Positions 9,517 through 59,161 of a DNA stretch of 64,000 nucleotides are shown here, piece by piece (the stretch's first letter is position 1; the number at the start of each line of letters is the position of its first letter). Below the pieces are notes generated by a model. The model searched no databases. It was given only the letters and a program-made list of their open reading frames with translations, and was not told the DNA's origin. Where the stretch lies: contig JBITAJ010000012.1 in NCBI GenBank assembly GCA_044440125.1, positions 1 to 64,000 on the forward strand. The letters are read 5' to 3'. The position numbers and the translations under genes are program-made. This stretch comes from Sedimentisphaeraceae bacterium JB056 (lineage in GTDB: Bacteria > Planctomycetota > Phycisphaerae > Sedimentisphaerales > Sedimentisphaeraceae).

Positions 9517-10356
9517 TTAGATAATAGTTTCGTTTTCCATGTTTGCTGTTAGAATTTTCTTGTCTGATTCGCTAAATTGATCTCTCCATTTGCCTGGTGA
9601 TATGTTGTAGTTTTTCTTGAATAGCCGTGTGAAAAAATTTACGTCTTCATATCCGCACATTTGTGAAACTTGTGTCACAGTCATATATGGATTAAGAAGA
9701 TTTTTACGTGCAAACTGCATTCTAAGTTTTTGTTGATATGCTATTGGGCCACAACCAAGATGTTTATTGAATAATGTGCCTAGATAGCTGCTGCTTAAAT
9801 CCAATGTTTCTGAAAGCTGTTCAAGATTTAACGGTTGAGTAAACTTTTCCTGTATTATTTCGATGGCACGTCTTAATTTGGGATGCATAATTGTAGCAGT
9901 TTTCTGATGATGCTCGATATTGCTCAGCCTTGACAAAATTGATCTTAGTATGCCTGAAACCTCTTGTGAATATCTCTTATTGTCGTATATGACGGTATGC
10001 AGATCTATAACATCGTCAACCCACCTGATTATATAAGGTTCGTTTTTTAGATATATTGTTCTAAAGTTCAGGTCAAAGCTATCAGGGCCATAGCTAAATC
10101 CAATATATGATGTACCGACAATTTCATTTTCAGATTGTAGGTGGGGTGTGTTTGGAGGAATCACAAAAATCGTGCCTGTATTACCTGTCAATACCTTGTT
10201 CTGTGCCTGGATAGTACAATGTCCCTGTGTTACCAAAATAAGTTCGGTAAAATCGTGAGCATGGGTTTGTACATTTGCTGACCTTAAAAATCGACCTGCA
10301 ATATTGATTTGAGGGCGATTGTACGTTTTTTCGATTTTTCGCTCTTTTAAGATCAT
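9517..10356 (-). CDS. AraC-family transcriptional regulator
   Basis: N-terminal cupin motif HAHDFTEL and C-terminal HTH (VTQVSQMCGYEDVNFFTRLFKK...SPGKWR). Confidence 0.93.
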   Translation of the reverse strand: MILKERKIEKTYNRPQINIAGRFLRSANVQTHAHDFTELILVTQGHCTIQAQNKVLTGNTGTIFVIPPNTPHLQSENEIVGTSYIGFSYGPDSFDLNFRTIYLKNEPYIIRWVDDVIDLHTVIYDNKRYSQEVSGILRSILSRLSNIEHHQKTATIMHPKLRRAIEIIQEKFTQPLNLEQLSETLDLSSSYLGTLFNKHLGCGPIAYQQKLRMQFARKNLLNPYMTVTQVSQMCGYEDVNFFTRLFKKNYNISPGKWRDQFSESDKKILTANMENETII

Positions 10357-10434
10357 CTTTATACCTTTGTATAGTACTGTTATGGGTAAATAATTATAGT
10401 TATTGTATTGTTTTTGGGCTAAAAACGCAACTTA

Positions 10435-10501
10435 AAAGTGGTTTTATGCTAAAGTAAAGTTGTTTTGTTACTTGTGTTAAATGGCTGTCTGATGTTATAA
10501 T
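10435..10501 (+). promoter_or_regulatory. Putative AraC-activated promoter of the 10558 operon
   Basis: Direct repeats AAAGTGGTTTT (10435) and AAAGTTGTTTT (10456) are 21 bp apart. They abut a weak -35 (TTGTGT, 10472) and an extended -10 TGtTATAAT (TATAAT at 10496-10501). Confidence 0.6.
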
Positions 10502-10557: not shown

Positions 10558-11403
10558 ATGCGAAAAACTTATAAACTTATCGTGTGTAAAGGTTTTACTC
10601 TTATAGAGCTTCTTGTGGTTATATCCATTATTGCTATCCTGATGTCAATAATGATGCCGAGTTTGCAAAAAGCAAGACAACAGGCGAAATTGGCAATCTG
10701 TGCGAATAATCAGCACCAGCTAATTTTAGGGGTGACTTCTTATCAGTCTGATTTTTATGATTTCCCACCCTCAATTCAAGGTAAAATATGGGGCACTAAT
10801 AATGTGTGGACTCAACCCTACCGCCTTAATTATTTTCCAAAACCGGTATATCAAAACGATAGCGGGTTTGCAGGTGGTGTAATGAGTGAATTTTTAGAAC
10901 CATATATCAGTGATGCAATGATTTTTGGTTGCCCAATGTCACCACCTAGAAAAAATTATAGCGTAAGAAGTGCAGTTAGTGGTAAGGAGTTGGATTACCA
11001 GCAAGCCTATCTTTCTGGTGAAATAAATTACGTTGACGCATCTTATTGGCAGTTATGGAATTATAGAGGATTTAATTCAGTATTTAATCCTAAAAAGTTT
11101 ATAGGCCCTGGCAAAAAATCAAAGATGACTCTTCTTACCTCTGATGTTTTGTGCTGGAATGATGTTGCTGCCGGACTTCCAAATATGTGGTTGTCAAGCC
11201 ATCGTAACATTAAAAAAGGATCTATGAAAGCAAGAAATGATGTCTTTTATGCTTGGGAGGATGCGGAAAAGATAAAGCCTGATAATATAAATATGAATGC
11301 AGGTTATTCTGATGGACATGTCGAAAGATTCAAGTCATCAGACACTTATGAAATGAGATTAGGTAGTGACCTTAAATGTTATATTCCAACTAAATTTAAT
11401 TAA
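10558..11403 (+). CDS. Prepilin-type N-terminal cleavage/methylation protein (DUF1559 / H-X9-DG type)
   Basis: KG^FTLIELLVVISIIAILMSIMMPSLQKARQQAK, a central CP motif, and C-terminal MNAGYSDGHVE. Confidence 0.9.
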   Translation: MRKTYKLIVCKGFTLIELLVVISIIAILMSIMMPSLQKARQQAKLAICANNQHQLILGVTSYQSDFYDFPPSIQGKIWGTNNVWTQPYRLNYFPKPVYQNDSGFAGGVMSEFLEPYISDAMIFGCPMSPPRKNYSVRSAVSGKELDYQQAYLSGEINYVDASYWQLWNYRGFNSVFNPKKFIGPGKKSKMTLLTSDVLCWNDVAAGLPNMWLSSHRNIKKGSMKARNDVFYAWEDAEKIKPDNINMNAGYSDGHVERFKSSDTYEMRLGSDLKCYIPTKFN

Positions 11404-11423: not shown

Positions 11424-12350
11424 ATGTTGTATGCAAAGAATGTATTGGGATTAGTTACGATATTTTTAATGATATTCAGTTGTCTGAGTTATGCTCAGTT
11501 ACCTGTTACAGATGGTTTGGCTTTACATCTTGAACCGTCTGGGATTGTGGAAAGTGAAGTTGAAGGTGTAATGCATGTTACGGCATGGCTTGACAGCTCA
11601 GGTAATGGGTATGATGCCGGGCCTACTCCTGATCCTTTAGAATTACCAGTTAAAATTGTTGATCCTATGACCGGTTTAGATATGGTGCACTTTGAAGATG
11701 ATGGGCTTTTAATACCTTCAGATTCTAATTCATTAACTCCAAAGACAGATGGTATTACTATTCTTGTTGTAGCCAATACTGATGAAGCTACTGCTAATCA
11801 GTACTATATTCAGAAGGCGAACACTGGCTCAACAGTAGAAGGCTGGAGTGTTAATATGGTTGACAGAGGTCGTCTTGGCAGTCGTATCTGCGGTAAAGGT
11901 GGAACCGATGATGAAAACAGAGGATGGCTCTATAAATATCGCGGCACTACTGACAGAGTTATTGTGACGACTATTTTCTATTATGATCAAGGAACAAATA
12001 TCGGTGAAGTATATGCTGCCGTAAATGGCGATGACACCGGTTATTTATCTAATATATGGTCAGAGCTGTATTACGGAAATTCTAATCCGGATGCGGATGT
12101 TGAGATTGGTAACCTTTTCTATGGTGATATAGCTGAGATCATAATTTATGACGCAGAGTTAAGCCAGACAGAGCTTGAATCAATGTACACTTATTTGTCA
12201 AATAAATATTATATTGATACGCCATTTTCCACTGGTTGTGAAGCAGTATGGGCTGCCGGTGAAGGCGAAGAAGCTGATGTTAATAAGGACTGCTTGATAA
12301 ATATTGATGATTTTGTAGAAATGGCAAATAATTGGCTGCTTAGCTATTAA
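11424..12350 (+). CDS. Secreted LamG/ConA-like protein with C-terminal dockerin-like tail
   Basis: Signal peptide, WLDSSGNG...GDIAEIIIYDAELS, and C-terminal ADVNKDCLINIDDFVEMANNWL. Confidence 0.75.
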   Translation: MLYAKNVLGLVTIFLMIFSCLSYAQLPVTDGLALHLEPSGIVESEVEGVMHVTAWLDSSGNGYDAGPTPDPLELPVKIVDPMTGLDMVHFEDDGLLIPSDSNSLTPKTDGITILVVANTDEATANQYYIQKANTGSTVEGWSVNMVDRGRLGSRICGKGGTDDENRGWLYKYRGTTDRVIVTTIFYYDQGTNIGEVYAAVNGDDTGYLSNIWSELYYGNSNPDADVEIGNLFYGDIAEIIIYDAELSQTELESMYTYLSNKYYIDTPFSTGCEAVWAAGEGEEADVNKDCLINIDDFVEMANNWLLSY

Positions 12351-12449: not shown

Positions 12450-13397
12450 ATGAATACTAAGAAGATAATACTTGATACTGACATAGGTACGGATGTAGAT
12501 GATGTATGGGCCTTAGGGTTGCTGTTAAAAAGTCCTGAGCTTGATCTGAAATTAGTTACCACCGTAAATGGGGATACCATATACAGATCTAAAATCGTTG
12601 CAAAATTCTTGCAACGGGCAAATCGTTGTGATATACCGATAGGCATTGGTTGTGCAGATGATAATAAACTCAACCGACAATGGCAGTGGGTTGAGAATTA
12701 TGATATAGAACAATACCCCGGTAAAATTTATTATGATGGTGTTCAGGCCATGATTGATATGGTGATGAGTTCTTCGAAGCCTGTTACGATAATATCTATC
12801 GGACCTTTGACTAATATTGCCGAGGCAGTTAAAAGATGCCCTGAGATTACTCAAAATGCGGAAATTATTGGTATGCACGGCAGTATAAAAAGTGGAAAAA
12901 ATGCTATTCCCGGTAAAGTAGCGGAATATAATGTGTTGCAGGATGTAGAGTCTGCGAAGCTGGTTTTTAAGCAGGATTGGAATATAACCATAACTCCGTT
13001 GGATACTTGCGGTATTGTGAAGTTTAGAGGTGAAAAATATTCACTGCTGAAAAATAGTGACTCTTCTTTAGTAAAGGATATTATCGAAAATTACAGAATT
13101 TGGGATATAAATGCGAAAATAGGTAATTTTGAGGTAGAAAGTTCTATACTGTTTGATACTGTTGCGATATATTTAGGTTTTACAGATGAATATCTGAATA
13201 TGGAGAGAATTAAACTTGTAATTGATGGTTCTGGTTTCATGAACGAAACTGATAATGGTAAAGATATTAATGTTGCAATCAGTTGGAACGATCTTGAAGG
13301 ATATGAGGATTTTCTAATAGAACGTTATCTGAGCAATCCAAAAGGAAAGACTAAGATTGACAGTGTTGAAACTCAGAACGTTCTTGTTTCCGAGTAA
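12450..13397 (+). CDS. Nucleoside hydrolase (IU-NH family)
   Basis: Motifs IILDTDIGTDVDD, IGPLTNIA, AEYNVLQD, PLD and LFDTVA. Confidence 0.88.
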   Translation: MNTKKIILDTDIGTDVDDVWALGLLLKSPELDLKLVTTVNGDTIYRSKIVAKFLQRANRCDIPIGIGCADDNKLNRQWQWVENYDIEQYPGKIYYDGVQAMIDMVMSSSKPVTIISIGPLTNIAEAVKRCPEITQNAEIIGMHGSIKSGKNAIPGKVAEYNVLQDVESAKLVFKQDWNITITPLDTCGIVKFRGEKYSLLKNSDSSLVKDIIENYRIWDINAKIGNFEVESSILFDTVAIYLGFTDEYLNMERIKLVIDGSGFMNETDNGKDINVAISWNDLEGYEDFLIERYLSNPKGKTKIDSVETQNVLVSE

Positions 13398-13429: not shown

Positions 13430-14626
13430 ATGAAAAAGAGTAATAGATTCATATTTTGTGCTGTTTTAATTCTTATCAATATTTCTTTTGCTGCAGAGCC
13501 ATTATTTCAATCAAGTCTGCTTTTTGAACGTCAAACAAAGGAAGATCATTATCGTGGCCCTCGAATCATACAATTGCCATCGGGGCGAATAGTTGTCGGG
13601 GCAACGTTGAAGCTTGGGCATATGCGAGATACTGGTGGTGTTGATGAAGGACGTTTTAAATATAGTGATGATGATGGCCAGACATGGCAAACTACAGAGA
13701 AATATAAAATTGGAGATGTTGTCGACAGCAATACCGGCAAGATCTGGAGTATTTCCCATGATTGGCCAATGAATGATGCTGAAGGTAATCCTATGACAGA
13801 GACATGGATGATCAATAATACCCAAAAAGGTATCGCTATTGGATCAACCATGGAAATATCTTCAAGCAGTGATGGTGTAAACTGGGAAAGCAAAGATATT
13901 ACTGATAAGTTTTTCACCTATACTAATGGCGGCCTTGCATGGTTTATTGGTCACGGTATTCAGCTTGAAAAGGGGAAGTATGCTGGCAGATTGATTATTC
14001 CGGGTAGATATTTTGGCAAAGAGTGGGATCATTGCGGGCCAAGTATGCATAATACATTGGCTTATAGTGATGATGATGGCAAGACATGGAATTGGGGCGG
14101 CAGTGCACAAGGTTACACAGGAGAAGCCTGTATCGTTGAACTTTCAGATGGTTCTGTTTATATGAGTAACCGTAATCATAATCCAGAGACAGCAGGTTAT
14201 CGTTCATATTGTATAAGTAAAGATGGCGGCAAAACATTCACCGAATTCGGTGTAGAAGAGGAATTGCCAGAGCCAAGATGTCATGCCTCTATGGTTAGAT
14301 ATTCTTTTCCGGAAGAAAAAACAAATACTCCAGGCAGAGTTTTATTCTTAAATCCATCTGTGAGAATTCCGGGTACCTCAATTGCACCTAAGAATGGTCG
14401 AAAAAATCTTACTGTCAAACTCAGTTATGATGATTGCAAGACATGGCCTGTATCGAAAACAATTGACGCCGGCATGGGTGGTTATTCTGATATGATTGTT
14501 ACTAAAGACGGTACAGTTATCTGTGTATTTGAATCTGGTAAAGAAGAGATTTATGCAGAGGATATTACACTTATAAGGTTTAATGTTGAATGGCTTGAAT
14601 CCGGCTTTGAACCCAAAATGAAATAA
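13430..14626 (+). CDS. Secreted sialidase-family (GH33-like) protein
   Basis: Signal peptide, YRGPRI (RIP-like motif), Asp-boxes SDDDGQTW, SDDDGKTW, SKDGGKTF and SYDDCKTW, plus GRKNLTV and GYSDM. Confidence 0.85.
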   Translation: MKKSNRFIFCAVLILINISFAAEPLFQSSLLFERQTKEDHYRGPRIIQLPSGRIVVGATLKLGHMRDTGGVDEGRFKYSDDDGQTWQTTEKYKIGDVVDSNTGKIWSISHDWPMNDAEGNPMTETWMINNTQKGIAIGSTMEISSSSDGVNWESKDITDKFFTYTNGGLAWFIGHGIQLEKGKYAGRLIIPGRYFGKEWDHCGPSMHNTLAYSDDDGKTWNWGGSAQGYTGEACIVELSDGSVYMSNRNHNPETAGYRSYCISKDGGKTFTEFGVEEELPEPRCHASMVRYSFPEEKTNTPGRVLFLNPSVRIPGTSIAPKNGRKNLTVKLSYDDCKTWPVSKTIDAGMGGYSDMIVTKDGTVICVFESGKEEIYAEDITLIRFNVEWLESGFEPKMK

Positions 14627-14641: not shown

Positions 14642-16498
14642 ATGAAAAAGCTAATCATATCTTTATTGCTACTTTTTTCTTCTGTTGTTTTTGCTTCCAA
14701 TAACTTTAAGGTTACTCAGCATGATGGCTTTGATAATATAGGTTACGAATTTGGAGCAAGCGGAATTTTGAAGTTTGCCTCTGGTTATGAAGAACAGCCG
14801 GAAATAGTAAGCGATATATCACTTGATGTCAAAAATGCAGTAGCATTTGGTCAGTCTGATATAGCTATTTTCTGCGATGATGGAACTATTTACTGTTTTA
14901 ATGCTATAACAGAGACTCTGCGGGTTCTTGAAAGACCTGAGAATCTAACGCCTGATATGGATGCCAACTTGACTACAGATCAAGTTCTTAAGTTTTTGGG
15001 TTCATCTAAGCCGAACTTTGGTCTGTTAAATTACACCGTACTTGGCGTTTACCTTGCAATCCTTGTTGGGATGGGATTTTATTTTTCAAAACATGAAAAG
15101 AGTACGGACGATTTCTTTCTTGCTGGCAGACGTATTCCGTCCTGGGCGGCAGGCCTGAGTATTTTCGGCACTCAGTTAAGTGCGATTACTTTTATGGCTG
15201 TACCTGCCAAAGCGTACAGCTCAAATTGGCAATATTTTTTAGGCAATATTGCAATCGTTTTAGTAGCAGCTCCTGTGGCCGCATTCATCTTTATTCCTTT
15301 TTACAGAAGATTGAATATTACTACAGCATATGAATATCTTGAAAAACGATTCAACCTTGCTGTACGTCTTTTTGCAAGTGCGATTTACATTGTAATGCAA
15401 TTGTTGCGAATGGGTATCGTATTGTTTCTGCCGGCCTTGGCATTATCTACCGTTAGTGGTATCGATGTCAGGTTGACAATATTGCTTATGGGTATTTTGT
15501 GTACCATTTATACAGTGCTTGGCGGTATAGAAGCCGTTATCTGGACCGATGTAGTTCAAGTTATAGTTTTACTTGCAGGTGCATTGTTGTGTCTGTTTGT
15601 AATAATCGCAGATGTTGGTCATGATGTGGTTGGTATGACACAAGTGGTATATGAGCAGGGCAAATTGTCGCTTGGTGATATGCGGCTGGATTTCTCTTCG
15701 CCTACACTTATAGTAGTGTTAATTATGATGCCTTCTATGTTTTGTCCTTATGTTACAGACCAAACTGTGGTTCAGCGTTACCTGACAACCAAAGATGAAA
15801 AGCAAGCAAAGAAATCTTTATGGATCAACGCCTGGATGACTATTCCTGCAACAGTTTTGTTTTTTTCGCTTGGAACTTTTCTTTATATGTTTTATTGCGA
15901 TAATCCTGAAAAGTTAGATGCTGGAATGAGCAATGATTCTATTTTGCCATGGTTTGTATTGCAGGAGCTGCCTGCAGGTATTTCTGGTCTTTTAATAGCA
16001 GGTGTTTTTGCAGCAGCTATGAGTAGTTTGGATAGCAGTATGAACAGTGTTTCTGCCGCAATAGTCTCAGACTTTGTTGTACGCTTTAAATCATCTATAT
16101 CAGAACACAGGCGTTTGGTTTTGGCCAGGATTCTTACTGTGATATTAGGAGCTTTTGGTACTATCACCGCTTTAGTGATGACTGCATATGATATTAAATC
16201 ATTCTGGGACTGTATGGTTAAAGTTGTTAATCCATTCTTAGGAGCGCTTGGCGGGCTATTCTTGCTTGGTGCGATTACGAAAAAATGTAATGCCACAGGG
16301 GGGCTTACAGGTATTATATTGGGTGTTGTTGTGTTATATATTATCCAAGCCGAAACTTCGCTTCACTTCTTCCTGTATATGCCTATAGCGGTTGTTGTTA
16401 CTTTTGTTATAGGTTTCATTGTCAGTCTGGTAACCGGTTCGAATAAGAAAGATATGACCAATCTAACCTTAACTACTATGGTTGAAACAGAGAATTAA
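14642..16498 (+). CDS. Sodium:solute symporter (SiaT-like) with N-terminal periplasmic extension
   Basis: Motifs FFLAGRRIP, SAITFMAVP, AYEYLEKRF, GGIEAVIWTD, DQTVVQRY and AAAMSSLDS. Confidence 0.92.
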   Translation: MKKLIISLLLLFSSVVFASNNFKVTQHDGFDNIGYEFGASGILKFASGYEEQPEIVSDISLDVKNAVAFGQSDIAIFCDDGTIYCFNAITETLRVLERPENLTPDMDANLTTDQVLKFLGSSKPNFGLLNYTVLGVYLAILVGMGFYFSKHEKSTDDFFLAGRRIPSWAAGLSIFGTQLSAITFMAVPAKAYSSNWQYFLGNIAIVLVAAPVAAFIFIPFYRRLNITTAYEYLEKRFNLAVRLFASAIYIVMQLLRMGIVLFLPALALSTVSGIDVRLTILLMGILCTIYTVLGGIEAVIWTDVVQVIVLLAGALLCLFVIIADVGHDVVGMTQVVYEQGKLSLGDMRLDFSSPTLIVVLIMMPSMFCPYVTDQTVVQRYLTTKDEKQAKKSLWINAWMTIPATVLFFSLGTFLYMFYCDNPEKLDAGMSNDSILPWFVLQELPAGISGLLIAGVFAAAMSSLDSSMNSVSAAIVSDFVVRFKSSISEHRRLVLARILTVILGAFGTITALVMTAYDIKSFWDCMVKVVNPFLGALGGLFLLGAITKKCNATGGLTGIILGVVVLYIIQAETSLHFFLYMPIAVVVTFVIGFIVSLVTGSNKKDMTNLTLTTMVETEN

Positions 16499-16609: not shown

Positions 16610-16712
16610 TCACCCTTGTGTTTCTATTTAGAAAAAATGATATCAGATAAAGTTTGTAGCGTTTAGGAATAACGCAATGAAACCAATTTGTAAAAAAATT
16701 TGGAGAAATAAT

Positions 16713-19700
16713 ATGGCAAGACGAATGATATTTATAATCTTATGTGTAATATGTTCGAATATTTCTGTTTTTTCTGCAGTATTGGCATATGAGGGGTTTG
16801 ATTATAGTACTAGCGGGCTTAATGGTCAAAGTGGTGGTACAGGCTTTTCTGGTTCATGGTCAGCAACTGGTGTAGAAACATCTGCAGGCAGTTTATCTGC
16901 TCCTTCTGCCTATGGCTTAAGTACAACAGGCGGGAAAGTGGCGGCTGATATGAGCGGAACCAGTATGAGGAGATTTCTAAGTACAGGTCTAAATTTGAAT
17001 CCAGCTTCACAGACAACATATTATCTGAGTATGCTTTTTGAAAGACAGGATTCTAGTAATGATGGATCAGGAGAGTGGATATCAATTTTCAGATTAAAAA
17101 ATTCCAGCAACCAGCAAATACTTAAATTCACAACAGGAAGCGGTGAAAATATTAGTATTACAGATGACAATGCTACCGATTTTTTTACCAAGCCGGATTG
17201 TTTTGAAATTGGCAAAACTTATTTAGTTGTAATGAAGATAGAGGCAAGAAATGATGGATTCGATAATGCTTATATTAAATTATTCGATGAAGACACCGCG
17301 TATATTACAGATGATTTGGATTATCTAAATAGTGATGTGCATATATCTTTTGACAGCAGCTCTACTATAACGAATATAACAACAGATTTTGGTACTAATC
17401 AAAATTATGTATATTTCGATGAGTTTCGCATTGGCACTGCATGGGCAGATGTTGTAGGCGGTGATTTTGTTCCTAAGTTGGCGTATGAAGATTTTGATTA
17501 CGGGACTGCCGGCTTAAATGGTCAAAACGGTGGAACAGGATTTAACGGAGCCTGGACAGCATCAGGTATTGAAACCAGTTCTACAAGTTTGGCAGCTCCT
17601 GCAGGATATGAGTATGTACCATCTGGTGGTGATGTTGCTGCTGATAATTCTGGTCAGGAAGCCAGGCGTGAATTTGCGTTCGATATTAATTTGGATCCTG
17701 AAGTTGGAGACAACTTGGTTTATTACTTTAGTGTGTTGTTCAAGAAGATAGATACCACTGGTGATCAGGAATCTAATGAATATATTCAGCCTATAAGGTT
17801 ATTAAACAGCAGCAATACCGTTATTGTTGACTATATTATTGGTAGTAATGAATCTGTGGCTACTATGATAAATGGCGGCGTGGCAGTTGCTACCTCATCT
17901 GACTACATAGAAAAAGATCAAACTTATTTATTAGTAGGCAAGCTCCTTTGTCGAGGCAGCAATACCCCTCAGTATTTGGATACCGATGATGTTAGTTATA
18001 TAAAAGTTTTGAAGGTTGGCACGGATACAGTTTATAGCGAGCCTAAAGATGAACAGTATTGGGATTGTATAGCAACTGCAAATTGTAGCGATACTATTAG
18101 CAAAGTTGCATTAAAATTCGGAGCCAATCAAACTGCTGTCCATATAGATGAATTCAGAGTTGGAACAACATGGGATCAAGTAGTTAATAATGATAAAGAA
18201 CTGATTCCACCAATATCTGATTATCTCCGTGATGATTATTTGCATTGCAGCTCTTCAGAGATCAGTCGAATAGAATCTGCAACCGATAAAGGATTAATGA
18301 ACATCAGGCCAGTTATTTTACCTGAAGGCGAAAATTTTCTCGGAAGCAATTTCCATATGGGTTGGCCAGTTGCGGCTATGAGTGATGATACTATTATCAT
18401 GCATTCCAGGCGTTTTGTATATCACACAGCTACGACTGAATTCAAACAAACATACCCATCATTCGCTGATGATTATAGCCAGATATTTTACTGTATTTCT
18501 AATGATGCAGGTAAAACATGGGGGCCTATGATAGATATTCAGCCGTTTTTTGCTGGTTCTTCTGGAGATACAATTGGCGGAATGATGAATATTGGGACCA
18601 ACAATAATGATGAATTTATTTTGAGATATAAGGGAATGGCAATTAGTGATGATGGCGGCCAGAATTGGGCATTATCAGAAGGAGCCTTTGATAATTGTAA
18701 TACGACTGATTCGGAAGGTATGGGACCTATTATCATTAATCATCCGGTTTTTGGATTAATGATGTTTAATGGATCTGATGCTGATGAAGAAGGTACTCCT
18801 CCGTGGAAAGCTTATATCAGACGCTCAACAGATGATGGGTTTACATGGGATGACATTTCATGGGACACTTCTAAAGATGGGGATTACGACTACACTTGGC
18901 CTAAGGAACCTGCAGCTTTAACTTGGGGGCCTGGACATATTTTGCTTATTTCACGAGACCACAGTTCAGAGTTTCCTGATGATGGCAGTACATGGGCAAT
19001 GAGTCAGCATTTATATAAATACGAATCTGGGGATACTTTCAGTGCCAGTGATATTGTATTTGAAACTCAGAGGTCAAACATTGAAGGAAATCTCTGGGAT
19101 AATATATGGGCTAATGATACTGCTGATGTTTCTTATAATCCTGTGACAGGCCGCATTGAAGTATTGCATTGTGCTCGATTTGGCGGCGGTCCAGGCTATG
19201 ACGGTAATAACACAGAAGTTGCCAAGGAAACACTTAATATTTGGAGTATAGATCCTGACGAATTGCTTGCAGGAAGCAACGTTTGGCGATTTGAAGGTAC
19301 AATGTTAGTTAGAAATGATCGCCATAGCCCAGCTACTAAAATTGACGGCTTACATCCAGGTTCTGCTGTTATCGATGAGGATAATGACCTGCAGCATATT
19401 TATGTCTATGCTGGGGGACACTGCGGTGAAGAAGTTGGTGTTTTTCAGATTGACAGAACTCTCAATACGGGCCAGTTGAGTGCATATTTAAAATCAAGTT
19501 TGCCAAATTGTCAATATACTAAAAAGATCACACTCGACTGCGATGATTTATACGATGAGCTTAGTGATGTCATTGTTACTATAAAACTAAACTCAAGCAA
19601 TATTGTATATAATCAATTTAAGGCTAATGCTGATGATATGTATTTCACAGATTCTCAGCAAAATATATTAAGACACTATATTTACCAATGGAATACTTCT

Positions 19701-21974: not shown

Positions 21975-22000
21975 AAGTTAAATTTCTAAGGAGACATCTG

Positions 22001-39303: not shown

Positions 39304-39346
39304 TTTTCTTTCTTTCATAATTTTTAATTTTTTTGTGAAAAAACTC

Positions 39347-44059: not shown

Positions 44060-44092
44060 ATAAAATCAGTTATTATTCAAGGTTTACTTCAA

Positions 44093-47524: not shown

Positions 47525-47552
47525 AGTGTTAAAGATTAAAATGAAGGCGTTT

Positions 47553-49523: not shown

Positions 49524-49531
49524 GGTGTTCA

Positions 49532-50164: not shown

Positions 50165-50190
50165 AACTCAAAGACCAATTGGAGAGATTA

Positions 50191-51945: not shown

Positions 51946-52982
51946 TGCAGATAAAAAGACTAAATAGAGAACAGGTGCGCGCAGCGATAAAATTTCAGTC
52001 GCCCTCAAGACCTCCTATCGCCCATGCTCTGACTTTTGAACCGGAATTATGGGCGAAGTATCCGGAGCAGCTTGACCGTATCAAAAGAGATTATCCCGAT
52101 GATATATCTTTTCACAATGTACATGTTGACTACTGGCAGGCTCCGGTGGATAAGCCATTTTATCGATGGGCCTTTGGCGGTAAGCAGAAACCGGCCGGTA
52201 CTGCTATAGACAGCTGCCCGGTGATAGAAGACTGGAATGATCTGGATCAGTTTATAAGTGAAATGCCGTCGCCTTTGGATGATAAGCCTTACGACGAAGT
52301 AAGACGGCTTGCCAATCAAAATCCTGACGATTATATATTGATTAGCTTTGGACATTATTTCAATCAGAAGTTTGCTTCCTTTCGAGGTATTGAAAATCTT
52401 TTGATGGATTTTTATGACAGTAAACATGAATTGCAAAGACTTCTTGAAGCGATTCTCGGTTATTACCAGGTGCTTGCCGAGCGCGTTGCCAAAGCCGGGG
52501 CTAACGGGATTTATGGCGGTGAAGATTTGGGTACGCAGAGAAGCTTGTTTATGTCGCCGCAAATTTTTCGTGAGGTATATAAACCATATTACATTCGCTT
52601 TGCCGAGATACTCCATGCTAACGGACTTGATTTTTGGCTGCATAGTTGCGGTAATATCACTGAGATAATACCTGATCTGATAGAGGCCGGTGTTGATGTA
52701 CTGCATCCGATACAGGTTGGTACGATGGATGATGAGCAGATAGTCAAAGATTATTCCGGTAAGATTTGTTTCCATGTAGGTATGGATGTTCAGAATCTTA
52801 TACCTTTTGCTACCGTGCAGGAAGTACGTGAGGGAATACGAAAGCGGGCCTTCAATTTCTATCGTCCTGACGGCGGTGTTATTTATGCTGCCGGAAATGT
52901 CATAACCGATGGTACGCCGCTGGAGAATATCGAAGCTTACGCACAAGAGCTGTTTTATTTTGTGGAGGCGCACACAAAATGA
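51945..52982 (+). CDS. UROD / MtaA-CmuA-like family protein
   Basis: Motifs RGIENLLMD, EDLGTQ, LHSCG, DVLHPIQ, GMDVQ and PLENI. Confidence 0.85.
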   Translation: MQIKRLNREQVRAAIKFQSPSRPPIAHALTFEPELWAKYPEQLDRIKRDYPDDISFHNVHVDYWQAPVDKPFYRWAFGGKQKPAGTAIDSCPVIEDWNDLDQFISEMPSPLDDKPYDEVRRLANQNPDDYILISFGHYFNQKFASFRGIENLLMDFYDSKHELQRLLEAILGYYQVLAERVAKAGANGIYGGEDLGTQRSLFMSPQIFREVYKPYYIRFAEILHANGLDFWLHSCGNITEIIPDLIEAGVDVLHPIQVGTMDDEQIVKDYSGKICFHVGMDVQNLIPFATVQEVREGIRKRAFNFYRPDGGVIYAAGNVITDGTPLENIEAYAQELFYFVEAHTK

Positions 52983-54205
52983 CATCAAGGGAACGGGTTT
53001 TACGAAGTATAGAATTCAAGAGTGTGGACAGGCTTGCCAAGGACCTTGGCGGTATGGCATCGACGGGAATAAGTGCGTTCGCTTATCCGAGGCTTGTCGA
53101 AAAGCTTGGACTTGCCTATCGCAGGCCAAAAGTTCATGATGTAGGTCAGATGCTGGCTATGCCGGATATGGATGTTCTCGATGCGTTGGGTTGTGATGTG
53201 GTAACGGTTTTTCATGGCGTGACCAACGCTTTTGAACAGGATGAGAAATGGCACGATTATGATTTTGGAGGCAGGCTCAAGGCAAAGATTCGTGATGCCT
53301 CTATGTTTGAAGTTTTATCTGACGGTACGATTGAATGTAAAACTCAAAAGTCAAAAATGCCTCCCGCTTCGACCGTTTTCGATACCGAACACGGCGGCCA
53401 GTCTGTATGTCTTTCCGGAGATATACCCAAACCAGATCTTGATCAGTTGCGGGAGCAGTTGAATAAGAGTTTCCCTTCCGAGTCGCAAATAGAGGAGACT
53501 GCTTCTCTTTGCCGAATGGTAAGACAAAGTACCGATAAGGCGGTCTTTTTTAACGGCCCGATTTACAGCGGACTTGGTATATGCTCTTTCGGCGGGATGG
53601 GTATTTTCCCGATGCTGTGTATGCTCGAACCTGAGTTCGTCAAAGAGTTGCATGGTATTATTGCTGATAACGCGACCACTATAATACATAAAATGCTTCC
53701 TGCCATAAAGAATGATATTGATATTTTATTGTTCGGTTCCGATGACTGGGGTACGCAGAATTCTCTTATCGCTCCGCCGGAGGTTTACAGGGAATTGTTT
53801 CTGCCGTTCCTCAAGCGAATGAACAGCGAGATAAAATCTATAGCTCCCGATCTTAAAATATTTCTGCATAGCTGCGGCAATATAATTGATATACTGCCGA
53901 TGATAATCGAAGCAGGGTTTGATGTGCTCAATCCCGTGCAATGGTCAACGACCGGTCAAGGCAGTTATGTTAAGTGGAAAGAAAAGACTCACGGCCGCAT
54001 CGCGTTATGGGGCGGCGGGGTAAATTCCCAGCATACTCTTCCTTTGGGAACAGTGGATGATATAGAACGTCAGGTAAGAGAAACCGTAAAATGTTTCTCT
54101 GATGGCAGCGGTTATATATTTGCTAACACACATAATATATTGTCAGAGATAGAACCCGAAAAAATAACGGCTATGTATAAAACGGCTGAAGAAATTAAGA
54201 TTTAA
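52979..54205 (+). CDS. UROD / MtaA-CmuA-like family protein
   Basis: Motifs MTSRERV, DDWGTQ, LHSCG, DVLNPVQ, WGGGVNSQ and THNI. Confidence 0.85.
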   Translation: MTSRERVLRSIEFKSVDRLAKDLGGMASTGISAFAYPRLVEKLGLAYRRPKVHDVGQMLAMPDMDVLDALGCDVVTVFHGVTNAFEQDEKWHDYDFGGRLKAKIRDASMFEVLSDGTIECKTQKSKMPPASTVFDTEHGGQSVCLSGDIPKPDLDQLREQLNKSFPSESQIEETASLCRMVRQSTDKAVFFNGPIYSGLGICSFGGMGIFPMLCMLEPEFVKELHGIIADNATTIIHKMLPAIKNDIDILLFGSDDWGTQNSLIAPPEVYRELFLPFLKRMNSEIKSIAPDLKIFLHSCGNIIDILPMIIEAGFDVLNPVQWSTTGQGSYVKWKEKTHGRIALWGGGVNSQHTLPLGTVDDIERQVRETVKCFSDGSGYIFANTHNILSEIEPEKITAMYKTAEEIKI

Positions 54206-54225
54206 AATTGTTAAGAGGCTTTAAG

Positions 54226-55353
54226 ATGACAAACAGAGAAAGATTATTGACAGTACTTAGAGGCGATATACCCGACTGCGTACCGGTATGTCCCGACATA
54301 TCGAATATGATTCCCTGCCGCCTTACGGGCAAGCCGTATTGGGATGTTTATCTCAAGAACAATCCTCCGCTCTGGAAGGCTCATATAAATGCATTGAAAT
54401 ATTTCAACCTCGACGGTGGGTTTGAGATGTATCGTTATCCCGACCCGCTCGGTGATGCTCCGAAATATGAAACAAGAATACTCAAACGTGAAGACGGCAA
54501 AATCATAACGAGGGATTATTACACTGAGAAGCAGGAATGGGCAAAATATCTCTGGGTTTATTATGAGAATGAGGCGCCCGCTGCTTATGTCAAACCTGCA
54601 ACAGTAGGGCTGCCCGAGGTGCCGCAACAATGGGAGCAAATAGATAATCCTGTAGAGTGGCCTGATGGAATGGAGCTGTGGCGTATCATACGAAAAGAGA
54701 TGGGAGAGCAGGGATTGATGGGTATGCCTTCGGGTATGCATACGTGTTTGCTTAACACTGCCGATGATGTGTATGAGTATTATGATAATCCCGGCAAGTA
54801 TCACAAGATGGCCGAGGATATGCTTGCACTTTCACTGAGCAGGATCGAGAGGATATCCAAGTTTCCAGTAGAGGATCGTCCGGACTTTATTGCCTGTGGA
54901 GCATCCGGTTCGCTTGTTCTTCAGACGCCCACAATATTCAGGGAGCTGATCTTGCCGATGCTCAAAGAGGTAACCAAAGCGGCAAAGAATATCGGTCTGC
55001 CCACACAGGTTCATTCCTGTGGCCCTGAGACGGCACTTGTCAAAATGGCCGCCGAAGAGACCGACCTTACTGTAATAGATCCACTTGAGATTGCTCCGAT
55101 GGGAGACTGTACGCTTGCGGACCTCAAGAAAGAGTTTGGCGACAAGATCGTTCTCAAAGGCAATCTTCATACTACTGACGTAATGCTTTACGGCAGCGTG
55201 CAGGAAGTTAAGGACGCGGCAAAGAAGGCGATTGATGACGCGGCAGAAGGTGGACGTTTTATCCTGTCCACCGGCGACCAGTGCGGCAGGGACACACCTT
55301 TCGAAAATATCGAGGCGATGGTGGAAGTAGCCAGAACATACGGCAAATATTAA
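54226..55353 (+). CDS. UROD / MtaA-CmuA-like family protein
   Basis: Motifs MTNRERL...PDCVP, VHSCG, IDPLE, LKGNL and FILSTGDQCGRDTPFENI. Confidence 0.85.
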   Translation: MTNRERLLTVLRGDIPDCVPVCPDISNMIPCRLTGKPYWDVYLKNNPPLWKAHINALKYFNLDGGFEMYRYPDPLGDAPKYETRILKREDGKIITRDYYTEKQEWAKYLWVYYENEAPAAYVKPATVGLPEVPQQWEQIDNPVEWPDGMELWRIIRKEMGEQGLMGMPSGMHTCLLNTADDVYEYYDNPGKYHKMAEDMLALSLSRIERISKFPVEDRPDFIACGASGSLVLQTPTIFRELILPMLKEVTKAAKNIGLPTQVHSCGPETALVKMAAEETDLTVIDPLEIAPMGDCTLADLKKEFGDKIVLKGNLHTTDVMLYGSVQEVKDAAKKAIDDAAEGGRFILSTGDQCGRDTPFENIEAMVEVARTYGKY

Positions 55354-55368
55354 ATGAAAGAGGTGTAA

Positions 55369-57168
55369 ATGAATAAGCTGCTGTTTAATTTCATAACCAT
55401 AGTAATGATCAGTACGAGTTGTTTGCAGGCTTCGTATAAAATTGCTTATGCCGATTCCATGACTAAGATCCGTATGGAGAAAGAGTATGCATCCGATCTT
55501 CCGATCGTTTCGGATATTGATGTTGATATGGCGGCTAATGAAAGTGAATCTTTCCAGCTTGTCATAATACCCGACGACTCAAATATTGAAGAAGTGTTTG
55601 TCAACTTTGAGAATACGACTTTTGATGCCGATGAACTGGCTATTGAATATTTCAAGGTCGGCTATGTGAAAACCGGTAAGCCGAAAAAGTACGATCCGTT
55701 ATATGTCGGTTACTGGCCGGACAGACTTATGCCCGTTGACACCTTTGATGTCAAAAGTGAAAATGTTGCGGTTTTGTGGTTTAAGATTACCACTAATAAA
55801 AATATACGCAGGGGCAGTTATAAAACTGATATAAGGATAACGAGTGCCCGGCAGAGCGATCTTGTAGAGTTGAATGTTAAGGTGAGAGATTTTGTCATAC
55901 CTGAAAAGGGAACATTTGCGGCTCCGTTCGGATTGTATCTGCCGTATATTTCTAAATGGTATTTTTCTGACGAAGATTATATAGGCAACATTACTCCCGA
56001 GCAATACGGTCAAATGTGCGAATCGCTTTACGAATACCGGCTTACTCCCAAGAATATAGGCTATGAATATGTTCACAGAAAAATCGGCGACCAAGTGCTG
56101 CCGCAAGCCGGAGCTAATGCCGGCCGGATCTTTGTTCATAAGGATATGAGCAAACCGATCAGTGTTGATATGGAGAGCCTGCAAAAGACCATCGGTCGGC
56201 TTGGCGATCAATTCCCGGATTATTCGTATGGAATCTATCGTTTGCCGCCGTATGAAGAGCTGCTTAAAGACGCCGATATTACTAACGGTCAACGAGATAC
56301 TTCCAGAGAAAATCTTGACAATTTGGTTCTGCCGGCTCTCGCCCATATAAAAGAATGGAAGAAGCAGAACTTGTCTTCGGTCGGATATATCTACGGGGTT
56401 GATGAGCCGCGGGAGTTTCATTTGGGTTTTTTGAAGGAGCTTTATACGAAGATCAAGGCCGAATTACCGGATGTGAAAATTCTGCAGGTGATTTCAACGG
56501 GAGACCCAAGCAAACTTGAAGGTTTGGTTGATATCTGGTGCCCATTGACAATCTTGCTCCATAGGGAATACGATTTTTTCCAGAAACGAGTTGCGGCAGG
56601 CGACATGCTTTGGACGTATGTCTGCTGCTGGCCTGAACCGCCGTTTGCAAACTTTTTCATTGATGAACCAGGTATAGATCACAGGGCATTGTTCTGGCAG
56701 GCTCAAAAGGCCGGAGCTACAGGGCTTCTATACTGGAGTGTTGCGTGGTTCGAAGGGCTTGAGGAACTTAAAGCTCCCGATGGGATAACCCTCAAAGAGC
56801 CTGTCGATATGACCAAGCACGAGATGTATGGCCGATCTAAAGTAAACGGTGACGGTTTGCTCTTGTATCCCGCTGAAAATTTTCAATTCAATCCGTCGAT
56901 ACGTCTTGAAATAATAAAAGACGGCATTGAAGACTGTGAATATTTTTCCCTTCTGAAAGCGTTGGTTCAGGAAGTAGAAAATATAAAAAGTCTTGATCAG
57001 GAAGATGCGGCCCGTCTTTCTCAGGCGAGGAAACTTATTGCCGTGCCTGATGATATAGTTGAAGATATGATTAATCATACTTCCCGTTCTAATGATATAA
57101 CAGATCATCGAAGAAAAATAGCCGATGCAATCGAAAGCTTAATGAAGATAAAAGAAAAGAGAAAGTAA
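55369..57168 (+). CDS. Secreted DUF4091 / GH123-like glycoside hydrolase (paralog of 50191)
   Basis: Motifs ANESESFQL, YGVDEP, DIWCP, WTYVC, GLLYW, NGDGLLLYP and SIRLEIIKDGIED. Confidence 0.8.
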   Translation: MNKLLFNFITIVMISTSCLQASYKIAYADSMTKIRMEKEYASDLPIVSDIDVDMAANESESFQLVIIPDDSNIEEVFVNFENTTFDADELAIEYFKVGYVKTGKPKKYDPLYVGYWPDRLMPVDTFDVKSENVAVLWFKITTNKNIRRGSYKTDIRITSARQSDLVELNVKVRDFVIPEKGTFAAPFGLYLPYISKWYFSDEDYIGNITPEQYGQMCESLYEYRLTPKNIGYEYVHRKIGDQVLPQAGANAGRIFVHKDMSKPISVDMESLQKTIGRLGDQFPDYSYGIYRLPPYEELLKDADITNGQRDTSRENLDNLVLPALAHIKEWKKQNLSSVGYIYGVDEPREFHLGFLKELYTKIKAELPDVKILQVISTGDPSKLEGLVDIWCPLTILLHREYDFFQKRVAAGDMLWTYVCCWPEPPFANFFIDEPGIDHRALFWQAQKAGATGLLYWSVAWFEGLEELKAPDGITLKEPVDMTKHEMYGRSKVNGDGLLLYPAENFQFNPSIRLEIIKDGIEDCEYFSLLKALVQEVENIKSLDQEDAARLSQARKLIAVPDDIVEDMINHTSRSNDITDHRRKIADAIESLMKIKEKRK

Positions 57169-57169
57169 T

Positions 57170-59161
57170 ATGGATTTTAACGCAGGATTAACTGATAGAT
57201 TTTCTACGGGCTGTAACTACTGGGCTTCACATGCCGGGTTGTTTATGTGGAGCAGATGGGACGAGGCAATAGTTGAGGCAGACTTTAAGCTTCTAAGCGA
57301 AAAGGGGCTGAAGACTTTGCGGGTCTTTCCGCTCTGGCCCGATTTTCAGCCGCTCAACGTTCTTTACGGCGAGTTTGGAGCGGCCAAGGAAGTTCGCCGC
57401 GGCGAGAGAAGACTTGATAGTTCGAGTCCTGAATCAGTTGCCTGTGTTGATCCTATTATGGTAGATCGTTTTGAGAAAATGTGCGAGCTGGCCGGAGAGT
57501 ATGGCCTTGAGCTTACCGTTATGCTGCTCACCGGCTGGATGAGCGGCAGACAGTTCAAGCCTGCTCCTCTCAATGACCGCAACATATATTCCAATCCGTT
57601 CGCCCTTAAGTGGCAGGTTCGGTTCGTGAAATATTTTGTGGAAAGGTTCAGGTCGCACAAGTGTATTGTGGGCTGGGGGCTTGGCAACGAGAGCAATATA
57701 ATGAGTACCTGTGATGACCCTGATACCGCTTATAGCTGGACGGCTCTTATATCCAACACGATCAAGGCCGCCGATCCTGAGCGGCCGGTAATTTCCGGAA
57801 TGCACGGACTCAGCGTTGACGGCAGCGGGCTGGGTTGGAAGATATCCGATCAGGGGGAACTTGTTGATATCGTTACAACCCATCCCTATGCCTTGTTTGT
57901 TAAACATCTTGATGGTGATAAGCTGCTAAGCATAAGAAATACAATGCATATTGCTGCGGAGTCAACGCTTTATTCCGATCTTACCGGCAAGCCGTGTATG
58001 AGCGAGGAACTTGGTGATCTTGGGACCAATCTTCTTGATCCACAATCCTCAAAAACGTTTCTAAATACTTGTCTTTTATCAGGTTGGGCTAATAATAACC
58101 TTGGTCTTTTATGGTGGTGTGCTTTTGAGCAGCGGCATCTTGACGATGCTCCTTACGATTGGTTTGCTTTTGAACAGGAGCTTGGTATTTTTAGTGCCGA
58201 TGGTAAGCCTAAGCCTACTTATTCAGCTTTTGAGAATTTTCACTCATTCCTCAGTTCTTTGCCGCCTCAGTTGCGAAAGCTTCCGCCGCGAAAACGCGAT
58301 GCCGTTTGCCTTCTCAGCAGAGGGCAGGATAACTGGGCTGCCGCTTTATCAACTTTTGTCCTTGCTAAACAGGCAGGTTTTGACGTACAGTTTGTTACAG
58401 AGGAGAATATACTTCCCGATGCTGAACTATATATGCTGCCGTCACTTTGCGGTTATGGTCCGGTATCTAAGTTTATGTATAAACAATTGCTTGATAAAGT
58501 GGAAGCTGGTGCAAGCTTATATATAAGCTCTTTTGATGCTTTACTGCCTAATCTCAGTGAGTATGCAGGTGTGAAAGTGATTTCAAGGAGTAAGTGGAAT
58601 TGTGAAGGCAGTATCAAGCTTGACGATGGTACCTCTATTAGACTGCCTGATGAGATGACCATGCAGCAGTGGCATAGAGAGGGCGGCTTCTTTGCTGATG
58701 CCAGCCAGTATTCTCTTGAACTGGAACCGGTTGGAGCTGAAGTGCTTGCAGATGATGAGAACGGTAATCCTATTTTAACTTGTAATAAATACGGCAAAGG
58801 TTTTGTATATTTCCTTAACTTTGGATTGGAAGTTATACTTGCCAAGACGTCTTTTGCTTTTGAAAACAATATGGACGATTTCTTTAAGCTTTATCAAAAA
58901 ATAAGTGGTAAGGCTTTGTCGCAAAGAGCTGCTCTTAAGAGTGAAAATCAGAAAGGACTGGCTATCTCAGAGTTTGTTATTAATGAGGAAGTGGTATGCG
59001 TAGGCGTTAACCACTATTGCTGTAAGATTGAAGGAAAACTTGACTTGCAGAACGATTTTAAGCTGGTTAAGTCTTTTGGTGGCGAGGTTAAGTCTTTTGG
59101 TGACAGGTGTTTATCTTACAGGCTGGATAAAGGGAAGGCTTTTGTTGCGATTTTAAGTTGA
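57170..59161 (+). CDS. Cytoplasmic clan GH-A glycoside hydrolase (GH5/GH42-like)
   Basis: GCNYWASHAG, LRVFPLW, acid/base WGLGNE, putative nucleophile SEELG, and LWWCAF, with a C-terminal GH42-like accessory domain. Confidence 0.8.
   Translation: MDFNAGLTDRFSTGCNYWASHAGLFMWSRWDEAIVEADFKLLSEKGLKTLRVFPLWPDFQPLNVLYGEFGAAKEVRRGERRLDSSSPESVACVDPIMVDRFEKMCELAGEYGLELTVMLLTGWMSGRQFKPAPLNDRNIYSNPFALKWQVRFVKYFVERFRSHKCIVGWGLGNESNIMSTCDDPDTAYSWTALISNTIKAADPERPVISGMHGLSVDGSGLGWKISDQGELVDIVTTHPYALFVKHLDGDKLLSIRNTMHIAAESTLYSDLTGKPCMSEELGDLGTNLLDPQSSKTFLNTCLLSGWANNNLGLLWWCAFEQRHLDDAPYDWFAFEQELGIFSADGKPKPTYSAFENFHSFLSSLPPQLRKLPPRKRDAVCLLSRGQDNWAAALSTFVLAKQAGFDVQFVTEENILPDAELYMLPSLCGYGPVSKFMYKQLLDKVEAGASLYISSFDALLPNLSEYAGVKVISRSKWNCEGSIKLDDGTSIRLPDEMTMQQWHREGGFFADASQYSLELEPVGAEVLADDENGNPILTCNKYGKGFVYFLNFGLEVILAKTSFAFENNMDDFFKLYQKISGKALSQRAALKSENQKGLAISEFVINEEVVCVGVNHYCCKIEGKLDLQNDFKLVKSFGGEVKSFGDRCLSYRLDKGKAFVAILS

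Follow-up and report, generated by a model that had tools for sequence, protein, structure and literature searches.

Planctomycetes and verrucomicrobes, which have hardly any TonB receptors, do much of the degradation of marine polysaccharides, and their route for the uptake of large nutrients is open; a 2025 review describes the players as unknown and discusses pili (PMC12673574). The question takes concrete form in a 64,000-nucleotide stretch of the planctomycete Sedimentisphaeraceae bacterium JB056 (contig JBITAJ010000012.1, or G000:C12:1-64000 in our coordinates; hereafter the window), taken from a 4.54 Mb assembly that is 99.8% complete. Three modules in it (9517-24804, 25059-36553 and 36645-59161) combine a transcriptional regulator, glycan-directed exported proteins and a transporter with one type IV pilin gene each. 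What does a pilin do in such a locus? We propose, with a probability of roughly 0.55, that these proteins are ligand-specific type IV pilins acting at the outer-membrane step of nutrient uptake.

Recurrence of the locus architecture

The three-module layout described in an earlier note on this DNA is borne out at the coordinates above. Each module has one AraC or LacI regulator directly beside one prepilin gene (gaps of 201, 289 and 35 nt) and one sodium:solute symporter (SSS; PF00474), and a Pfam scan of 44 window proteins matched no family of TonB receptors, SusD, ATP-binding cassette (ABC) transporters or pilus machines. The pilins, called A, B and C from here on (genes starting at 10558, 31056 and 37409), have in common an N-terminal helix (57% identity between A and C, confined to residues 11-71) and a DG[H/S] motif close to the C-terminus. 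Two statements of the note hold in part. A protein with a dockerin-like tail is found in modules 1 and 2, whereas the repeats of module 3 are internal (residues 624-690 of the product of 40681-44010); type II secretion system (T2SS) and type IV pilus genes are absent from the window but encoded elsewhere in the genome.

The same architecture recurs throughout the genome. In a set of 3434 genes from a simple open reading frame (ORF) caller, searched with profiles iterated from the window proteins, there were 79 matches to the pilin motif; one lay in a machine cluster and was dropped. The 78 pilins, among which the window modules are 3 loci, stand against 67 LacI, 59 AraC (some shared), 58 SSS and 198 dockerin-like genes. 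As the note had expected, they lie near regulators, SSS genes and carbohydrate-active enzymes (CAZymes) more often than chance. Within five genes, 72 of 78 have a dockerin gene (random mean 25.6, maximum 38 in 1000 draws), 61 a LacI or AraC regulator (random mean 21.1) and 39 an SSS (random mean 11.9). Regulator, dockerin gene and SSS together surround 40 of the 78, compared with 7.5% of other genes, and among SSS-near genes a dockerin gene adjoins 32 of 46 pilins as against 11.6%. Direct adjacency to the regulator, seen in all three modules, extends to only 20 of the 78 loci. Second pilins are rare, with 74 of 78 having none within three genes. A catabolic CAZyme, BNR or sulfatase gene lay within three genes of 13 of 20 random pilin loci and of 2 of 20 controls (Fisher p 0.0008, by Pfam; the pilins were drawn from 72 not yet examined, with two loci overlapping, and controls lay more than 10 genes from any pilin).

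That such a pilin is induced together with its module, as the note had also supposed, is seen in a verrucomicrobial relative only, for one gene on alginate in one replicate, homology being judged from size and label rather than from sequence. In Verruconatronum alginivorum, pgaptmp_000050 encodes a 251-residue protein with a pilin signal, beside an SSF gene in a LacI-bearing alginate locus, and has 67 paralogues. It made up 0.513, 0 and 0% of the proteome on alginate, mannose and sucrose (one replicate each) and was the most abundant product of genes 000047-60 (PMC13274419). A 129-residue pilin beside pilT rose from 0.006 to 0.222% (one replicate), 003013 appeared only on sucrose (0.033%) and 002757 on all three sugars (0.87-1.78%); the other paralogues of 200-280 residues outside machine clusters were undetected or at most 0.016%, among 89 rows labelled 'PILIN' (PMC13274419).

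In two planctomycetes, pili-like fibres bind dextran-gold, and dextran gets into the periplasm (PMC5394234). Planctomycetota N_methyl + SBP_bac_10 proteins of 230-330 residues form dozens of scattered paralogues beside signal-peptide genes (PMC8567305). Our literature search, which left most subscription papers outside, returned no paper that places such pilins in the TonB receptor slot and none that links the N_methyl + DUF1559 or H-X9-DG family to uptake loci or riboswitches; the supplements of PMC11685898 contain none of four pilin terms, and the word 'pilin' was not found in the accessible part of a Kiritimatiellia preprint.

Cobalamin and metal operons

The note had cast the pilins as a replacement for SusC/D. 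One TonB receptor, no SusD and two SBP_bac_1 genes, against 78 pilin loci, agree with this (profile searches of the genome), but the wording is too narrow, since pilins also stand in cobalamin and metal operons. Two of them adjoin a gene for a DUF4465 PEP-CTERM protein or for its partner domain. We take DUF4465 to be cobalamin-binding; the name was not found in passages from papers on Bacteroides cobalamin proteins. Riboswitches were predicted at both DUF4465-side pilins before the search, and the genome's only two matches to RF00174 head exactly those two operons.

Across the class, RF00174 occurs in 142 of 150 genomes (171 matches). For 60 of these matches, chosen for spread over 56 genomes and 19 families, we went through the 10 kb that follow; three of the 60 were picked knowing that a TonB receptor was near. 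In this sample a pilin takes the place of the TonB receptor almost completely. Forty-eight led to a pilin, three to a TonB receptor, none to both and nine to neither, with pilins in 17 of the 19 families and a chance expectation of 4.7% (estimated in the JB056 genome). The nine comprise three nrdD, two cobamide-salvage operons and four operons of tagged proteins. In four families (f6, f8, f14 and f15), 0 of 21 genomes had a match to the TonB receptor model PF00593, yet all nine sampled riboswitches led to a pilin; in the class as a whole, PF00593 matches are found in 74 of 151 genomes, with a maximum of nine per genome. Two operons (L157 and L168) run in the order riboswitch, surface proteins, pilin, Peripla_BP_2, ABC ATPase and FecCD, the last three of BtuF-D-C type; they therefore already encode a periplasmic binder, which leaves only the outer-membrane step open.

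The riboswitch pilins belong together. A profile of relatives' heads gave the genome's two riboswitch pilins 192 and 153 bits and the next best pilin 45, and in a FastTree phylogeny of 125 rows all 49 riboswitch pilins formed a clade with one other pilin (SH 0.978; two riboswitch pilins without the motif and one distal pilin were omitted). The reverse test started from protein similarity, with the best 80 of 573 relatives (Phycisphaerae, Pirellulales and other Planctomycetota): a riboswitch preceded 52 of the 53 loci that had at least 4 kb upstream, and none of the 80 had a TonB receptor. Rfam confirmed the riboswitch in 16 of 16 cases, and the sole match among 50 control pilin loci was the genome's own operon on C1. 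The clade includes the JB056 pilins C16:58905 and C1:26063; the histidine of an RWHG motif does not vary among 16 close members.

Two side observations concern these operons. Their conserved partner domain (L112:7119-8051) has no Pfam or PDB match besides its tail; its motifs may resemble those of BtuH. Directly after the cobalamin operon on C1, a second pilin, two dockerin-tagged proteins and a histidine-rich 114-residue ORF (L113:5155-7992) may possibly serve cobalt or zinc capture.

Metal loci provide a second ligand-class clade. A 216-residue pilin, matched in 39 of 201 genomes, lies between a block of NikR, cupin and dockerin-tag genes and a ZnuA-type ABC system, and ZnuA-type ABC genes follow the pilin directly in 23 of the 29 outside loci returned. 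Another pilin adjoins feoAB, chaN and cbiX; its clade was considered as a third, haem- or iron-side ligand class and rejected, chaN being adjacent in only 2 of 6 outside loci.

Fold and family of the pilins

The class III signal motif (G/A at -1, F at +1, E at +5) is present in all 78 pilins by construction, 39 with Gly and 39 with Ala at -1, and TIGR02532 is above cut-off in all three window pilins. The DUF1559 label of the earlier note fits pilin A alone: it reaches 26.8 bits against the PF07596 cut-off of 23.3, over 42 of 268 positions, while pilin C scores 12.7 bits and pilin B gives no match. Despite the DG[H/S] motif, no window pilin is among the 14 genes of the genome above the TIGR04294 (H-X9-DG) cut-off. 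The pilins are like the N_methyl + SBP_bac_10/TIGR04294 family in prepilin motif, size and number of scattered paralogues; 16 and 14 genes here match PF07596 and TIGR04294, but two of the three window pilins miss both models. On the GspG model TIGR01710 the window pilins score 27.5-38.2 bits against a cut-off of 88.85, and they lie outside the gsp cluster, where the true GspG of the genome scores 117.5 (C16). The named homologues of pilin A are proteins of Sedimentisphaerales and other Phycisphaerae.

The type IV pilin fold appears in two models. That of pilin A (pLDDT 94.6, from 118 sequences) has a helix at residues 15-66 and terminal strands, and in a fold search of 48,161 chains its top 10 matches were all pilins (best PilA4, Z 5.1, root-mean-square deviation 3.4, 122 residues aligned); that of a cobalamin-clade pilin (pLDDT 89.2) had its best pilin match at Z 5.0. 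Foldseek found nothing for pilin A at E 0.001, and its lectin rows, with TM of about 0.1, were dismissed. More than half of each modelled pilin, about 150 of 281 residues in pilin A, is an insert that aligns with no pilin, and heads can be aligned in just 136 of 3003 pairs within the genome. As modelled, the pilins are a common stalk with a variable head. Pfam assigned no solute-binding protein family to the window pilins and none was listed in the fold searches, which does not exclude that fold. Tryptophan makes up 3.3% of heads and 2.35% of tagged proteins, a difference too weak for use.

Machinery and proposed mechanism

Three clusters in the genome encode filament machines: a complete T2SS (C16), a type IVa-like system (C27) and a PilB-PilT-PilB-PilC set with large pilins (C15). 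In all there are four PilT above cut-off, six secretin matches and one prepilin peptidase. Among 20 relatives, PilT is found in all and a pilin of the C15 cluster is matched in 14, several of these through the N-terminal helix only. The genome's ATPases are of PilB/GspE/PilT type; the search for a BasEF system gave 41-46 bits on the BasE model against a cut-off of 1000, and PilM and the secretins fall far under the Amuc_1101 and Amuc_1098 cut-offs. Four secretin-domain genes lie beyond the three clusters (C15:226655-230546, C15:290746-292065 and C4:282354-285917) and are candidate channels for these pilins.

We propose that a locus is switched on by its regulator or riboswitch, as gene order suggests here and protein induction suggests in the relative only. 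The prepilin would be cut by the single prepilin peptidase and its N-terminal helix built into a type IV filament of a shared machine. The variable head would bind the nutrient, or a breakdown product, passed on by surface proteins anchored through a dockerin-like or PEP-CTERM tail. Retraction driven by PilT would then pull the ligand through a secretin into the periplasm, where the SSS or ABC transporter of the locus, judging by gene order, would take over. One machine with interchangeable heads could in this way do the work done elsewhere by one TonB receptor per locus. We infer the steps of binding, filament assembly, retraction and secretin passage.

The tails of the surface proteins were called with our own profile. 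None of the four dockerin-like window proteins reaches the Pfam Dockerin_1 cut-off (best E 0.1); three window tails consist of one repeat each, and the two repeats of 40681 score 13.3 bits against 22.9. Genome-wide, 172 of the 198 dockerin-like genes have the repeat at the C-terminus and 193 have a hydrophobic N-terminus. One partner domain carries a dockerin-like tail in families f1-f3 and PEP-CTERM in f7, f8, f9 and f19, with both in one case, and these differently tagged domains sit beside pilins of one clade. Cohesin PF00963 has no match in the genome, a diverged cohesin not being excluded. Because no cohesin was matched, the tail reads, at the level of sequence, as a tag for anchoring or sorting that PEP-CTERM can replace, and not as a cellulosome part.

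Alternative explanations

The main rival, which we consider unlikely, holds that each pilin is a cargo-specific adaptor of the T2SS endopilus that exports or displays the tagged proteins of its own locus and never touches a nutrient. It stands because partners and pilins travel together: they are co-inherited, and the strongest neighbour signal is a tagged protein, whose gene immediately adjoins 49 of the 78 pilins and the pilin in 28 of 29 metal loci. The genome has the complete T2SS that such an adaptor would use, one pilin shares a cytochrome/multicopper-oxidase operon with three tagged proteins, and enzyme export is how the authors of PMC13274419 read the pseudopilin of Verruconatronum. 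Against this rival, a pilin is missing from the five-gene neighbourhood of 53 of the 198 dockerin-tag genes, four riboswitch operons have tagged proteins and no pilin, the pilin of L189 is the first gene and has no partner, and in family f16 relatives of pilin A occur in loci without a dockerin-tag match. Export would also leave the crossing of the outer membrane by cobalamin unexplained in genomes without a TonB receptor match, and at 0.513% on alginate the Verruconatronum pilin is eight times as abundant as GspG (0.064%), which is high for an adaptor (PMC13274419).

A somewhat less probable alternative is that the pilins are periplasmic binding proteins anchored in the inner membrane, bindosome-like and with a short filament or none, which feed the SSS or ABC transporter while porins or the single TonB receptor see to the outer membrane. 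The SSS of these loci have no binding protein of their own, the genome does have one TonB system, and Sulfolobus sugar-binding proteins have the same class of signal peptide (PMC3047682). In the cobalamin and metal operons, on the other hand, BtuF-type and ZnuA-type binders already follow the pilin, and at riboswitches the pilin replaces the TonB receptor rather than accompanying it (0 of 60 with both). Cobalamin has a mass of about 1.35 kDa. Porins pass about 600 Da (PMC5394234), which is below that size, and family members of Tuwongella (N_methyl + SBP_bac_10) were also found in the fraction soluble in sodium dodecyl sulfate only (PMC8567305).

Pilins that merely tether the cell to glycan particles or report a ligand, as substrate-specific adhesins or sensors without import, are improbable. 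Akkermansiaceae MUL2 pili have been described as attachment devices (PMC13174399), and the pilin head varies faster than enzymes of the same locus, as in surface antigens (39% against 53-71% identity at L298, a related locus of genome G194), but adhesion fits poorly with dissolved cobalamin or metal ions and with a pilin gene placed between surface proteins and ABC transporters. That the pilin is the missing cohesin, a scaffold docking dockerin-tagged enzymes, is scarcely credible: the 198 dockerin-like genes without a cohesin match and the resemblance of the tail family to solved cellulosomal dockerins (E 3e-5) invite the idea, whereas the tails are alike and the heads mostly unalignable, and the same partner domain bears either tail beside pilins of one clade.

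Several results weigh against our own proposal that the pilins act in uptake. The fold Z-scores are only about 5. PilT is present in both TonB-using genomes tested, and the single TonB receptor of JB056 has a sugar-type resemblance (TIGR01782, under cut-off) and could carry many oligosaccharides. One genome (G008) has a pilin operon as well as a TonB-receptor operon, neither of the two thiamine pyrophosphate riboswitch matches leads to a pilin, and pilins also occur in loci without a clear uptake role, namely a multicopper oxidase/cytochrome operon, a folB-folK locus and as a lone gene. Forty-five of the 48 riboswitch loci fall into one linked partner group; surface partners therefore travel with the pilin, and tracking of the ligand is inseparable from tracking of the cargo. 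Partner families were tried as a separator of the two and rejected, the partners chaining into one group. The clade results can possibly reflect inheritance of one ancestral operon rather than independent events.

Glycan pilins, moreover, track substrate only partly. Related pilins have a common neighbour family in 31 of 93 pairs, against 65 of 2909 unrelated pairs (permutation mean 3.0, maximum 15), which leaves 62 of 93 without one; outside the largest pilin family the figure is 10 of 47, and common neighbours can be explained by co-duplication. Of 26 relatives of pilin A (5 of 31 rows were dropped, the motif missing), 9 have a sialidase-like gene nearby, including four of the six closest and two from a family outside the order. 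The enzyme family of the pilin B locus recurs at 3 of 4 relatives of that pilin; for pilin C this holds, weakly, at 1 of 3. The window sialidase has only three close relatives, beside two related pilins, but more distant BNR genes occur elsewhere, so the association is not exclusive.

Relation to known systems and significance

By analogy, the pilin system would work like a bindosome or a competence pilus in the place of SusC or BtuB, as a member of neither family. The bindosome (Bas) of Sulfolobus solfataricus likewise has a class III signal peptide on a sugar-locus protein; it uses classical ABC binding proteins in an archaeon without an outer membrane, whereas here the head is built on a pilin fold, paralogues number dozens and glycan loci have an SSS rather than an ABC transporter. 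With PilA/ComP competence pili and GspG/PulG the pilins have in common the Glu5 prepilin motif, the long helix and the pilin core (PilA4, EpsG, PilV and ComP matches), and PilB, PilC, PilT and secretins are in the genome; the difference is that the pilin genes here lie in nutrient loci away from the machines and score far under the GspG and ComGC cut-offs. SusC/D loci resemble the window modules in their co-located regulator, glycosidases, binding proteins and transporter. More broadly, SusC/D and btuB/btuG loci have one envelope gene per regulated locus, surface binders and an inner-membrane transporter, including riboswitch-led cobamide operons (PMC11080852), but in the loci described here a pilin stands instead of beta-barrel receptor, SusD and TonB, the tails are dockerin-like or PEP-CTERM and an SSS performs the inner step. 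Akkermansia MUL2 ties pilus-like genes to glycan uptake in a bacterium of the Planctomycetes-Verrucomicrobia-Chlamydiae (PVC) superphylum (PMC13174399), through one conserved machine locus rather than one pilin per substrate locus. Verruconatronum pgaptmp_000050 agrees in size, pilin signal, SSF/LacI glycan locus, paralogues and substrate induction and differs in the export role its authors give it (PMC13274419).

A wider form of the proposal, to which we give slightly less than even odds, is that in much of the PVC superphylum glycans, cobalamin and metal complexes enter the cell across the outer membrane independently of TonB, by one retractile type IV filament and a secretin, the filament being loaded with whichever of dozens of ligand-specific pilins is induced. 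If so, Gram-negative bacteria would have a second general way through their outer membrane; it would give the dextran-binding fibres of planctomycetes a molecular identity and one of the largest unexplained gene families, with dozens of copies per genome, a function. Pilin genes would then mark uptake loci in these phyla as susC/D do in Bacteroidota. For a direct test, the cobalamin clade offers a single conserved protein and a single ligand that is small, soluble and coloured.

Genes of the window and minor observations

The genes of the three modules, with their main support, are as follows.

9517..10356, minus strand: AraC-family regulator of module 1, divergent from the pilin gene (HTH_18 E 2.8e-19; AraC_binding)
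10558..11403, plus: pilin A, 281 residues, first gene of the module 1 operon; predicted type IV pilin core with a large insert (N_methyl and PF07596 above cut-off)
11424..12350, plus: exported ConA/LamG-like protein with dockerin-like tail (own profile, E 1e-10)
12450..13397, plus: nucleoside-hydrolase-family protein (PF01156 E 1.6e-36)
13430..14626, plus: BNR sialidase-like enzyme (BNR_2 E 1.6e-17; neuraminidase model under cut-off)
14642..16498, plus: SSS of module 1 (PF00474 on residues 158-561)
16677..20627, plus: 1316-residue exported multidomain protein (DUF2341, Calx-beta, weak ConA-like match; dockerin-like repeat not found)
20889..21974, plus: uroporphyrinogen decarboxylase (URO-D)/MtaA-fold protein of module 1 (PF01208 E 1.5e-20; MtaA/CmuA and HemE under cut-off)
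21971..23104, plus: NanM-like Kelch protein (PF24996 E 4.5e-39; single stretches under cut-off, 134.7 bits overall)
23279..24804, plus: sialate O-acetylesterase-family gene, frameshifted into two overlapping ORFs (SASA on both halves)
25059..26561, minus: SSS of module 2 (PF00474 E 2e-48)
26584..29106, minus: exported glycoside hydrolase (GH)-like barrel with LamG and dockerin-like tail (LamG E 7.5e-8; tail E 9e-8)
29187..31016, minus: GH2 glycosidase of module 2 (four GH2 domains)
31056..31817, minus: pilin B, 253 residues, first gene of the module 2 operon (N_methyl E 3.5e-9; TIGR02532 above cut-off; no PF07596 match)
32107..32940, plus: AraC-family regulator of module 2, divergent from the pilin gene (HTH_18 E 2.1e-16)
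32992..34572, minus: exported LamG protein with dockerin-like tail (LamG E 9.8e-9; tail E 2e-8)
34898..36553, plus: exported GH-like barrel protein (GH18 E 7.6e-4, under cut-off)
36645..37391, minus: CBM96-like protein with PEP-CTERM tail, co-oriented after pilin C (CBM96 E 8.8e-6; PEP-CTERM E 5.7e-6)
37409..38218, minus: pilin C, 269 residues (N_methyl E 7.8e-8; PF07596 under cut-off)
38254..39393, minus: LacI-family regulator of module 3, co-oriented upstream of pilin C (LacI E 4.1e-12; Peripla_BP_3 E 6e-29)
39506..40573, plus: URO-D/MtaA-fold protein of module 3 (PF01208 E 1.1e-19)
40681..44010, plus: 1109-residue exported protein with three CBM96-like stretches, two internal dockerin-like repeats and a C-terminal domain related to 47526
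44051..45502, plus: 483-residue protein (no Pfam match at E 0.5)
45560..47524, plus: SSS of module 3 (PF00474 E 8.2e-22)
47526..59161, plus: rest of module 3, with near-zero gaps: a CBM9-bearing protein, a GDSL esterase, two GH123, three URO-D/MtaA-fold proteins and a GH2/42-like barrel

Module 1 likely acts on a sialic-acid-type glycan and module 3 on a glycan containing N-acetylgalactosamine, the latter from the activity that we take GH123 to have; no glycan was assigned to module 2. Relatives of all eight module 2 genes occur together in a single 20 kb region of G194 (L298) in slightly different order, and because they cluster there the borders of the module are supported. In module 1, the Atlas look-alikes of 11424..12350 have Laminin_G_3 on 30-34% of members (score 0.97), a lead only. 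The halves of 23279..24804 align with consecutive parts of intact paralogues of 524-530 residues; the run from which the window possibly derives agrees with it here, and low-depth contigs of another study show single-base indels in the gene. In module 3, the product of 36645 is 64% identical to one repeat of 40681.

The products of 26584 and 34898 are 44% identical across about 500 residues, and Atlas look-alikes of the latter have GHL10 on 14-24% of members. Together with C21:15801-28530 they represent a GH-like barrel family that has no assignment and is present as five close copies in the genome, in loci of the related pilins C12:31056 and C21:31765; from its sequences it is a candidate new glycoside hydrolase family.

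The symporter at 14642..16498 has about 150 extra N-terminal residues with a signal-like start, and another SSS, of 827 residues, has an N-terminal extension of 375 (L091:1-2484). Six URO-D/MtaA-fold proteins are encoded in the window (20889-21974, 39506-40573, 51945-55353 and 59186-60190), four of them in module 3, and 52 in the genome; all window copies fall under the HemE and MtaA cut-offs. They possibly take part in corrinoid-dependent demethylation of methylated sugars. Near pilins they show no enrichment (12 of 78 within five genes, 9.3 expected).

Three further pilin loci are described here for themselves. L114 (G000 C22:226134-238145) encodes multicopper-oxidase-domain proteins, a subtilase, a dockerin-tagged multihaem cytochrome c, a pilin and ResB/ResC-type maturation genes, possibly a surface redox or metal-acquisition system. 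At L119:4063-7420 (G000 C32) a pilin precedes folB, folK and a short-chain reductase gene in the same orientation; the locus might possibly serve pterin salvage. The lone 324-residue pilin of L121:5167-6141 (G000 C11:45167), with no nutrient operon around it, is a candidate constitutive member like Verruconatronum 002757.

Near the start of the window, at 1122-3798 (36.5% GC), RHS-core and YD-repeat fragments flank the gene of a small membrane protein and look like the remnant of a polymorphic toxin/immunity system.

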